From assembly GCA_038850515.1 (NCBI GenBank), contig JAWCLV010000002.1:1966-65965 (forward strand): DNA of 64,000 nt, in the 5' to 3' direction. The DNA comes from Candidatus Bathyarchaeia archaeon. Its GTDB lineage: Archaea > Thermoproteota > CALKCG01 > B24 > JAGTQN01. This document shows, piece by piece, positions 3,939 to 4,619 of this stretch (within the stretch, counting starts at the first letter, position 1; each line of letters opens with the position of its first letter). Under the pieces are notes generated by a model that saw only the letters and a list, made by a program, of their open reading frames with translations, ran no database searches and was not told the DNA's origin. The position numbers were made by a program, and so were the translations under genes.

Positions 3939-4619
3939 ATGGTAAAGGTTGTAATAGACGGCTCCCAGGTCGAAGTGGTAGAGGGCTCCACTATCCTTGA
4001 GGCTGCAGAAAAGGCTGGAGCCAAGGTTCCAACCCTTTGCTACTTGAAGGGAATATACTCTGGCGCCGTTTGCCGCATATGCTCCGTCGAGGTGAAAGGT
4101 CTTCCTAGGCTTGTTCCAGCCTGTGCCTATCCCGTAGCGGAGAACATGGTCGTTAGTACGGACTCCAGAAGGGTTAGGGAAGCCAGAAGGATGATCCTAG
4201 AGATGATTTTGGCAACCCATAAACAAGACTGCCAGAGCTGCTCCTTAAAGGGTGGGGATTGTAAGCTTCTGGAACTGGCTGCCGAATATTGGCTTCAAGG
4301 CTTTTCCGTCTGCAATGAATGTCGATTCGTAGGTAAGGACTGTCTTCTGGAGAAGGGAGAACTCTGCCTTGGGCCCATAACCCTCGGGGGCTGCAGAGCC
4401 ATCTGTACTGCATCCGGTTATACGTGCGAGGGTTGTAGGGGCCCCCTCCTCGACATAGAGTTTGGGCTTTCAACCCTTCGTAAGTATGGTATCGATTGGC
4501 GGGAGGTCCTTAGGAGGCTCGGGAAGTATTCTTTGACTTCCGAGAGATTCCGAAAGGCTAAGGAACGAATCGAGGCTGAAGCTAATCTTCCCAGGGAAAG
4601 GGTAACGATCGAAAGATAG
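3939..4619 (+). CDS. fusion: HoxU/[FeFe]-hydrogenase F-domain N-terminus (2Fe-2S plus His-ligated 4Fe-4S) joined to the C-terminal FeS-binding half of a group-3 [NiFe] small subunit
   Basis: 226 aa. The N-terminus ([10 protein letters not shown]...LCYL...CRICSVEV...AC, then [15 protein letters not shown]) matches the NuoG/HoxU/CpI N-terminus. The C-terminus ([35 protein letters not shown]) matches the C-terminal motif of MvhG/HydD-type small subunits. Confidence 0.75.
   Translation: [226 protein letters not shown]

Follow-up and report, generated by a model that had tools for sequence, protein, structure and literature searches.

In the 64,000-nucleotide stretch of Candidatus Bathyarchaeia DNA analysed here, called the window in the following, the region 1383–8093 consists of five + strand genes set close together and one convergent gene after them (Table 1). 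Judged by its gene set and domain architecture, the five-gene unit is an operon for a group F [FeFe] / group 3f [NiFe] hybrid hydrogenase, and the open reading frame (ORF) at 3939–4619 is its hydD. Our main finding concerns the parentage of this protein and of the HyhS::HydA fusion encoded by ORF 6067–7587. According to the alignments, HydD is residues ca 1–121 of HydA joined to residues ca 167 to the end of a [NiFe] small subunit, and the fusion is residues ca 1–165 of the small subunit joined to HydA from residue ca 126 to the end, with two F-clusters and a minimal H-domain. The whole explanation, that is, the assignment of the ORF as hydD of a hybrid operon, the reciprocal chimeras, their reassembly, the resulting electron paths and an origin by crossover, is in our judgement very probable.

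The ORF 3939–4619 is intact, and the coordinates and motifs quoted for it in an initial annotation of this DNA are correct. That annotation had read the beginning of HydD as similar to CpI, HoxU and NuoG, with a [2Fe-2S] cluster followed by a His-ligated one, and this reading is borne out by every comparison made. Pfam places Fer2_4 at amino acids (aa) 1–76 and NADH-G_4Fe-4S_3 at aa 83–117, and in NCBIfam aa 2–123 match positions 1–121 of the 571-position FeFe_hydrog_A6 profile with E 1e-38. The matches of the N-module in the PDB range from E 5e-27 to 1e-10 and include residues 7–119 of HydA1 (7q4v_A, E 5e-27), NUAM, and residues 5–120 of the A. mobile HydA (7t2r_A), while with blastp aa 2–120 were aligned to residues 5–120 in 40 out of 40 bacterial HydA proteins. 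Judged from these alignments, the N-module is homologous to residues 1–120 of M3-type HydA, HoxU and NuoG. All the HydA, NuoG and HoxU alignments end at aa ~117–123, and the 2x[4Fe-4S] ferredoxin domain is absent from the HydD chain, which agrees with the earlier statement that the chain stops before the two ferredoxin clusters.

For the remainder of HydD, aa 118–226, Pfam gives no match. Used alone as a phmmer query against the PDB, this part returns six matches with E < 1e-3, each of them a group-3 [NiFe] small subunit. The best is the delta subunit of Pyrococcus furiosus sulfhydrogenase I (SHI; 9nez_A, residues 161–255) with E 1e-14, and MvhG is also among them. The alignment to SHI delta is collinear through all eight Cys of the C-module (C125, 128, 135, 143, 152, 156, 163 and 166) and through the helical tail. 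In NCBIfam, aa 120–208 match two sulfhydrogenase delta profiles (ShyD/HydD; group 3b small subunit) at positions 156–233 of 240 and 164–255 of 261, with E 5e-14 and 2e-13, respectively. The small-subunit motif CxxC...C...CxGPxTxxGCxxxC...CxxC is present at aa 124–166, and none of the eight Cys varies across an alignment of 74 sequences. Their predicted role is to bind the medial and distal [4Fe-4S] clusters. In total, HydD has 15 Cys and one His as possible ligands, all placed in four cluster motifs (1x[2Fe-2S], 3x[4Fe-4S]).

The predicted fold points in the same direction. An AlphaFold2 (AF2) model of aa 118–226 made from the 74-sequence alignment has a predicted local distance difference test score (pLDDT) of 89, and in a Foldseek comparison of this modelled C-module with the PDB the only matches are SHI delta (TMq 0.67, root-mean-square deviation 2.6 Å, probability 1.0) and MvhG. 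An AF2 model of the whole HydD from 8 sequences, with pLDDT > 90 for the N-module and 37–79 for the C-module, was left out of the fold search. A mixed alignment of 109 rows, in which small-subunit N-domains had been forced onto the HydD N-module, was discarded. The earlier proposal that the C-part is the C-terminal half of a group-3 small subunit thus stands, and another iron-sulfur (FeS) family was not found for the C-terminal Cys motif, all matches being to small subunits.

Of the 1.84 billion representative proteins searched, 478 contain the C-module domain. Among the best 150 of these 478, there are 111 canonical small subunits, with Oxidored_q6 in the same chain, and 4 proteins of the HydD type, the others being fragments. 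Outside the window, the top-scoring representative for the C-domain, P0121 (248 aa), consists of two tandem copies without an N-domain or a Pfam match, and P0190 and P0253 are canonical group-3 small subunits with Lys/Ala/Pro-rich histone-like tails of 150–300 aa.

The complementary parts lie in ORF 6067–7587, as had been proposed for the small-subunit N-half, the ferredoxin domain and the H-domain. Pfam places Oxidored_q6 at aa 22–155 and Fe_hyd_lg_C at aa 296–478 of the fusion; the former is absent from the HydD chain. In terms of domains, HydD is not a small subunit but carries half of one. The N-domain of the fusion matches residues 2–147 of 9nez_A with E 3e-21, and aa 10–161 were aligned by blastp to residues 3–157 in 20 out of 20 canonical small subunits. 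Further downstream, aa 175–414 were aligned to residues 132–398 of bacterial HydA. The F-domain matches positions 139–221 of FeFe_hydrog_A6 in NCBIfam and residues 143–217 of HydA1 (8a6t_A), and the alignment to CpI is contiguous over 136–320, from the F-domain into the H-domain. The linker between these two domains (6853–6921) is far longer than in relatives. All full-length relatives of the fusion that were found are archaeal fusions with the same architecture. With the large subunit at 4686–6074 between the two chimeric genes, the order in the window is the one initially annotated, [FeFe] N-part with small-subunit C-part, large subunit, small-subunit N-part with [FeFe] C-part.

Another option considered was that the C-half of HydD is a generic NuoG- or ferredoxin-type extension and that the three clusters of the fusion form a full small-subunit relay. 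The published label 'NuoG-like conduit' suggests this reading and the absence of a Pfam match would be consistent with it. In FrhG-type small subunits, a 2x[4Fe-4S] ferredoxin domain does come after the N-domain, and the FrhG profile aligns to aa 12–248 of the fusion. However, all significant sequence and fold matches of the HydD C-half are group-3 small-subunit C-domains and none is a ferredoxin or NuoG, and the collinearity extends over the whole C-half of SHI delta, helical tail included. In the fusion, the ferredoxin domain carries the RGF...TPF insert and is contiguous with HydA into the H-domain, and the best profile is FeFe_hydrog_A6 with 113 bits, compared to 72 bits for FrhG. This option is accordingly judged to be highly improbable. 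The N-domain and ferredoxin domain of the fusion taken together as a complete FrhG-type small subunit were ruled out because the ferredoxin domain has its higher score with HydA, to which it aligns without a break.

At the first proximal-cluster motif of the fusion (6127–6141, aa 21–25), the window protein and P0272 have DCGGD (CxxD), and the other relatives and canonical small subunits have CxGC. It is plausible that an Asp serves as a ligand of the proximal cluster here, as one does in FrhG.

We now turn to the breakpoints. On the 258-aa small subunit P0127, the fusion spans residues 5–165 and HydD residues 167–256, and on the 592-aa bacterial HydA P0299, HydD spans residues 4–121 and the fusion residues 126–401. 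Taken over 20 small subunits and 40 HydA proteins, the medians are in line with these values. The breakpoints are thus complementary to ≤ 5 residues in both parent families, and both junctions of the chimeras coincide with inter-domain linkers of the parents. It is because both parents are covered complementarily by the two chains that HydD and the fusion can be called reciprocal chimeras.

The same two chimeric genes were found in nine further independent loci of different archaea, at 37–88% identity and with all cluster ligands kept. The hosts of the split arrangement are Bathyarchaeia, Asgard archaea, Sulfolobales and other archaeal contigs. A pattern scan of genome contigs derived from a 4-sequence alignment, with the patterns in the 2Fe-2S domain, gave only bacterial HydA/NuoG loci and no archaeal ones. 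The gene orders are given in Table 1 with C for HydC, B for HydB, D for HydD, L for the large subunit and F for the fusion. C-B-D-L-F, the order of the window, and F-C-B-D-L are cyclic rotations of each other, and L follows immediately after D wherever it is present.

These loci bear directly on the possibility that the split is an artefact of assembly or annotation, or a decaying pseudogene arrangement, confined to one metagenome-assembled genome (MAG). The source of the window is indeed a MAG, and the public ORF annotation is uninformative. However, the ORFs are intact and tightly spaced, and exact or near-identical copies of the window proteins recur on several independent contigs and assemblies, in addition to the nine more distant loci with conserved ligands. 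This possibility has next to no probability left; the artefact reading is refuted by the conservation across loci.

A few features of the related loci deserve mention. In L083 and L086 there is no [NiFe] large-subunit gene between HydD and the fusion or nearby, and it seems that their small-subunit halves have been retained as an FeS scaffold lacking its catalytic partner, unless hyhL is located elsewhere. The L086 fusion, as called, is without its first ~45 aa, the CxGC proximal-cluster motif included. Adjoining the hybrid operon of L093 is a canonical four-gene group-3b sulfhydrogenase operon (9758–13687, − strand) with an unsplit 248-aa small subunit. The comparison with related genomes suggested in the initial annotation has thus shown the split to be kept in nine loci, and an intact small subunit, such as that of L093, is part of a separate canonical operon.

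It is important to point out that the system as such has been described. Greening et al. (Cell 2024, PMC11216029) report in the text of their article an archaeal hybrid of group F [FeFe] and group 3f [NiFe] hydrogenases with the genes HydC-HydB-HydD-HyhL-HyhS::HydA and with Bathyarchaeia among the hosts, the HyhS::HydA fusion being its defining feature. In the window, a small-subunit domain and an H-domain are likewise found in one polypeptide, with HyhL, HydB, HydC and a four-cluster HydD contiguous to it; the exact proteins come from a Ca. Bathyarchaeia MAG, and genes that look ESCRT-III/Vps4-like lie downstream. The five genes and the host range are the same as in the published hybrid and nothing is different in kind. 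L091, with its GltD-fused HydB of 1052 aa, matches the published Thermoplasmatota example and has the same HydD architecture. The initial annotation had not recognised the topology from any described hydrogenase operon, and the novelty implied by this does not hold in view of the five-gene hybrid in the 2024 article text; the operon went unrecognised because that paper is recent.

In the text of PMC11216029, HydD is called a "NuoG-like conduit with four FeS clusters" and the three 'small-subunit' clusters are assigned to the fusion. The words 'split', 'proximal', 'medial' and 'distal' do not occur in that text, and our literature search found no other paper that pairs HyhS with HydD in the sense of a split small subunit. 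What is added here, namely that the C-half of HydD is a small-subunit C-domain, that the extra clusters of the fusion are the F-clusters of HydA and that the swap is precisely reciprocal, appears to be unreported.

Regarding the origin, the order of the window is the one that a single Campbell-type crossover between the hydA of a hydCBA operon and the hyhS of a hyhS-hyhL unit would produce. The product of such an event would be hydC-hydB-[A(N)-S(C)]-hyhL-[S(N)-A(C)], and it would require that one of the parental units, either of them, was on a circular molecule. Alternatively, the chimeras could stem from separate events, for example a fission of the small-subunit gene followed by two independent fusions. 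The variation in gene order (C-B-D-L-F, F-C-B-D-L, C-B-F-D-L and C-B-D-F) speaks for such a history, and the rank correlations given below do not tie the halves to one parent. However, a complementarity to ≤ 5 residues in both parents is what a single exchange should leave behind, and independent events would be unlikely to produce it. Moreover, neither of the intermediates looked for, a free C-half together with an intact HydA, or HydD together with an intact small subunit in one operon, was seen among the 478 C-module matches, and the best 150 of these are, fragments aside, canonical small subunits or of the HydD type. Separate events are considered rather unlikely.

The assembly of the complex can be envisaged as follows. 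The small-subunit N-domain of the fusion and the C-domain of HydD would re-associate on HyhL to give a three-cluster small subunit. Similarly, the HydA N-module of HydD and the F- and H-domains of the fusion would re-associate as in CpI or HydABC, giving a Y-shaped cluster tree. Since neither chain would contain more than half of either module, the two chains would clasp the [NiFe] and [FeFe] modules together. On the [NiFe] arm, electrons would pass from the [NiFe] site via the proximal cluster (fusion) and the medial and distal clusters (HydD C-module) to the junction of the His-ligated cluster and the [2Fe-2S] cluster in the HydD N-module; on the [FeFe] arm, they would reach the same junction from the H-cluster via the F-clusters of the fusion. 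From the junction they would continue to the HydBC flavin module, where electron bifurcation or confurcation would couple H2 to ferredoxin and to nicotinamide adenine dinucleotide, NAD(H). This role of HydBC is inferred from the homology with HydABC and NiFe-HydABCSL.

We tentatively put forward the strongest form of this proposal, in which one reciprocal crossover between hydA and hyhS left the small subunit and the HydA accessory module each to be rebuilt in trans from two polypeptides. The result would be a natural split-protein clasp, with the coupling of the [NiFe] and [FeFe] modules obligatory. The published cluster assignment would then need revising, with the medial and distal clusters on HydD. 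In this complete form, its probability is in our estimate slightly below even.

Several points weigh against the explanation given above. The re-association of the halves is deduced from homology and from the model published in the article text (PMC11216029). The order C-B-F-D-L of L093 is not a rotation of the others, and L083 and L086 are without the large subunit; because of these loci a one-crossover history needs later rearrangements. Spearman correlations of whether the two halves rank reference proteins alike gave rho 0.02 and 0.07 for the small-subunit and HydA pairs, values that are uninformative on common parentage. As to the [FeFe] site, the spacing to the YPEL motif aligns the L1 Cys of the fusion with the proton-relay residue C299 of CpI, and a Ser with the ligand C300. 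Most clade members have no Cys at this place, so that binding of an H-cluster is not assured, and no hydEFG genes were found among the window ORFs of at least 220 aa.

These last points lead to the question of whether the H-domain is active. Its motifs are LIPCSEAA (L1), IAPCTSKK (L2) and FVCPEGCVGGGGQP (L3), and of the predicted H-cluster ligands the L2 Cys and the two L3 Cys are present. At L1 (7114–7137, aa 350–357), the Cys is confined, among the homologues P0272–P0278, to the window lineage and P0272; in other archaeal clade members it is replaced by G, S, Y, M, V or E, and the next Ser is conserved. In L091 and L093, a WC(P/K)AA motif occupies the C300 position. The closest bacterial HydA matches are mostly of the 'TSCS' and not of the 'TSCCP' type: 88 out of 112 show a 'CS' pattern at L1 (TSCS[SP]), as does the solved HydA1 of 7Q4V, and these matches include proteins named by NCBI as NADH-dependent group A6 hydrogenases. 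A literature search for the 'TSCSP' variant of L1 gave no relevant match.

One could thus imagine that the anatomy is as described but that the H-domain is a dead remnant, the complex being a [NiFe]-only bifurcating hydrogenase like the A. mobile NiFe-HydABCSL, and an FeS scaffold where the large subunit is absent. Besides the L1 substitutions, the Ser at the canonical ligand position and the lack of hydEFG in the stated size range, this would fit the deviating residues at L2 and L3 (Met to Phe/Tyr), the homologue in L082 that is without L2 and L3, and the length of the H-domain, ~220 aa compared to ~350 aa in CpI. The A. mobile HydA, which has no H-cluster, is a precedent (PMC8880783), and according to the text of PMC11216029 one of two tested fusions, Th2, showed low activity. 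On the other hand, the L2 Cys and the L3 motif CxxGCxxGGGQP are kept in most relatives, and the 'CS' at L1 of the window is the same as in the 88 bacterial proteins. Furthermore, the other published fusion, Th1, produced H2 after artificial maturation, as stated in the same text, and in L083 and L086 the H-domain is intact even though the large subunit is absent. A dead H-domain is regarded as unlikely, but as a rival still to be reckoned with.

It is instructive to compare the window with related enzymes of known structure. The A. mobile NiFe-HydABCSL (PDB 7T2R/7T30) has in common with it the HydBC flavin module and, as proposed for the window, a HydA-type Y-shaped FeS tree. In its solved structure, the pair of NiFe large and small subunits sits on one of the arms of this tree, and the bifurcating flavin mononucleotide (FMN) belongs to HydBC (PMC8880783). 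HydD aa 3–119 align to residues 5–120 of the A. mobile HydA and the N-domain of the fusion aligns to its HydS. However, the A. mobile HydA is one chain of 692 aa without an H-cluster, and HydS has 179 aa and one cluster, the C-domain being absent, whereas here the C-domain is kept on the HydA N-fragment and the H-domain is retained with L2 and L3.

Among solved structures, the soluble Pyrococcus/Thermococcus sulfhydrogenases I/II (group 3b; 9NEZ, 9E15, 5YXY) come closest to the large subunit (E 1e-73) and to each half of the small subunit, residues 2–147 of SHI delta matching the fusion and 161–255 matching HydD. Their delta subunit is a single 261-aa chain, the partners are beta/gamma subunits (sulfite-reductase-like and flavin adenine dinucleotide, FAD) instead of HydBC, and there is no [FeFe] component. 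With the electron-bifurcating FeFe-HydABC enzymes (T. maritima 7P5H; 7Q4V and 8A6T HydA1; 'group A6'), the HydD N-module and the F- and H-domains of the fusion reach their highest family scores. Their HydB and HydC are homologous to those of the window, and HydA1 of the 7Q4V type shares the 'CS' at L1. In these enzymes HydA is one chain of ~580 aa, while here it is cut at ~121–126 with each piece fused to a small-subunit half, and the H-domain of the window is ~130 aa shorter. Finally, the bidirectional HoxEFUYH (group 3d [NiFe]; 5XF9) has a NuoE/F/G-like diaphorase, a HoxU whose N-part is homologous to the HydD N-module, and a one-cluster small subunit, HoxY. Unlike the window proteins, HoxU keeps its own ferredoxin clusters and HoxY is without the C-domain; HoxEFUYH has no H-domain and is not bifurcating.

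Among the other genes of the operon, hydB encodes more than the NuoF-like core: there is a CCxxC prefix at the N-terminus, a 2x[4Fe-4S] domain at the C-terminus and also a weak 2Fe-2S thioredoxin-like region, with NCBIfam matches to nuoF_fam (E 2e-146) and NuoF_pre_CCxxC. The feature set listed for Bfu-type enzymes in PMC8880783 (NuoF core, N-terminal [2Fe-2S], C-terminal 2x[4Fe-4S] and HydC) is present here according to Pfam and NCBIfam, and on these profiles HydB is a diaphorase of the Bfu/HydABC type. HyhL has the Ni-Fe ligand motifs RICGTCNVNH and DPCISCATH and a C-terminal extension of 17 aa for protease processing, and its true start may be M29 (4770). ORF 6067–7587 overlaps the large-subunit stop by 8 bases.

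Table 1. Positions of the operon genes and protein domains in the window, and gene orders of related loci (positions on their own contigs)
Feature	Position	Strand	Description
HydC	1383–1925	+	NuoE/HoxE-like thioredoxin-fold [2Fe-2S] subunit; Pfam 2Fe-2S_thioredx E 1e-44; NCBIfam HoxE/NuoE
HydB	1960–3918	+	652 aa; NuoF-like FMN/NAD(H) subunit; Pfam Complex1_51K, SLBB, NADH_4Fe-4S, Fer4
HydD	3939–4619	+	226-aa chimeric FeS subunit, four predicted clusters
HydD N-module	3939–4289 (aa 1–117)	+	[2Fe-2S] C34/C45/C48/C62 and His-ligated [4Fe-4S] H94/C98/C101/C108, predicted
HydD C-module	4302–4583 (aa 122–215)	+	group-3 [NiFe] small-subunit C-terminal domain; eight Cys, then helical tail
HyhL, [NiFe] large subunit	4686–6074	+	nearest group 3b; PDB 5yxy_A, 9nez_D E ~1e-73; NCBIfam ShyA/HydA alpha
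HyhS::HydA fusion	6067–7587	+	506 aa; Pfam Oxidored_q6, Fer4, Fe_hyd_lg_C; NCBI MEM2925904.1
Fusion, small-subunit N-domain	6094–6549 (aa 10–161)	+	proximal [4Fe-4S], predicted; motifs DCGGD, GSCAT, HGCP
Fusion, HydA-type F-domain	6619–6831 (aa 185–255)	+	2x[4Fe-4S], predicted; RGF...TPF insert typical of HydA and NuoG
Fusion, linker	6853–6921 (aa 263–285)	+	Lys/Gly-rich low-complexity KSKLEKKGKGKGGGRGSEENEGK, between F-domain and H-domain
Fusion, minimal H-domain	6937–7509 (aa 291–481)	+	Fe_hyd_lg_C E 7e-13; PDB alignments to HydA1, CpI, DdH
HycI/HyaD-type [NiFe] large-subunit maturation endopeptidase	7584–8093	−	convergent with operon; Pfam HycI E 1.5e-12; NCBIfam hydrog_prot E 1e-29
L082, L084			C-B-D-L-F, window order; HydD homologues at 43–50% identity
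L087			C-B-D-L-F; Asgard
L089			C-B-D-L-F; Sulfolobales
L091	1123–8232		F-C-B-D-L; HydB 1052 aa, fused to GltD-like domain
L093	3555–8964		C-B-F-D-L; archaeal contig
L083	8001–10090		C-B-D-F, no large subunit; HydD homologue at ~50% identity
L086	7535–9621		C-B-D-F, no large subunit; HydD homologue at ~50% identity

Outside the operon, a protein of two GAF domains is encoded at 252–1337, on the same strand as hydC and 45 bp upstream of it, and might serve the operon as a sensor or regulator. Downstream, a Nudix-like ORF (8210–8692) lies between the protease gene and a SudB/NfnA-like FAD/NAD-binding gene with a GltD/NfnB-like gene (8743–11001). The latter two look like a pair of the NfnAB or sulfide-dehydrogenase type, which would fit a neighbourhood concerned with NAD(P)H/ferredoxin balancing. 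The stretch 11294–14786 contains two paralogous ORFs (11294–11917 and 12729–13562), a coiled-coil/Pro-rich ORF (11929–12699) and an ORF at 13632–14786, which, judged by eye, look like genes for ESCRT-III/CdvB-like proteins and a Vps4-like AAA ATPase. An ESCRT-III/CdvB and Vps4 cell-division cluster is typical of TACK and Asgard archaea.

The hybrid operon was notable in 2024 because an association of [FeFe] and [NiFe] hydrogenases had previously not been known, and the window is one more example from the Bathyarchaeia. The AlphaFold model described in the article text predicts a stable five-subunit complex (PMC11216029). The system is thus already known, and the domain parentage is a modest refinement of it. 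The exact HydD protein is deposited as NCBI MEM2925902.1 (Ca. Bathyarchaeia MAG) with only the label '2Fe-2S iron-sulfur cluster-binding protein', and with this label and the blank in Pfam the public annotation misses its C-half. The parentage proposed here would give the hybrid a simple one-step genetic origin. It would also predict how the [NiFe] site is linked to the junction, with the proximal cluster on the fusion and the medial and distal clusters on HydD, and it would explain how the two enzymes are physically locked together.

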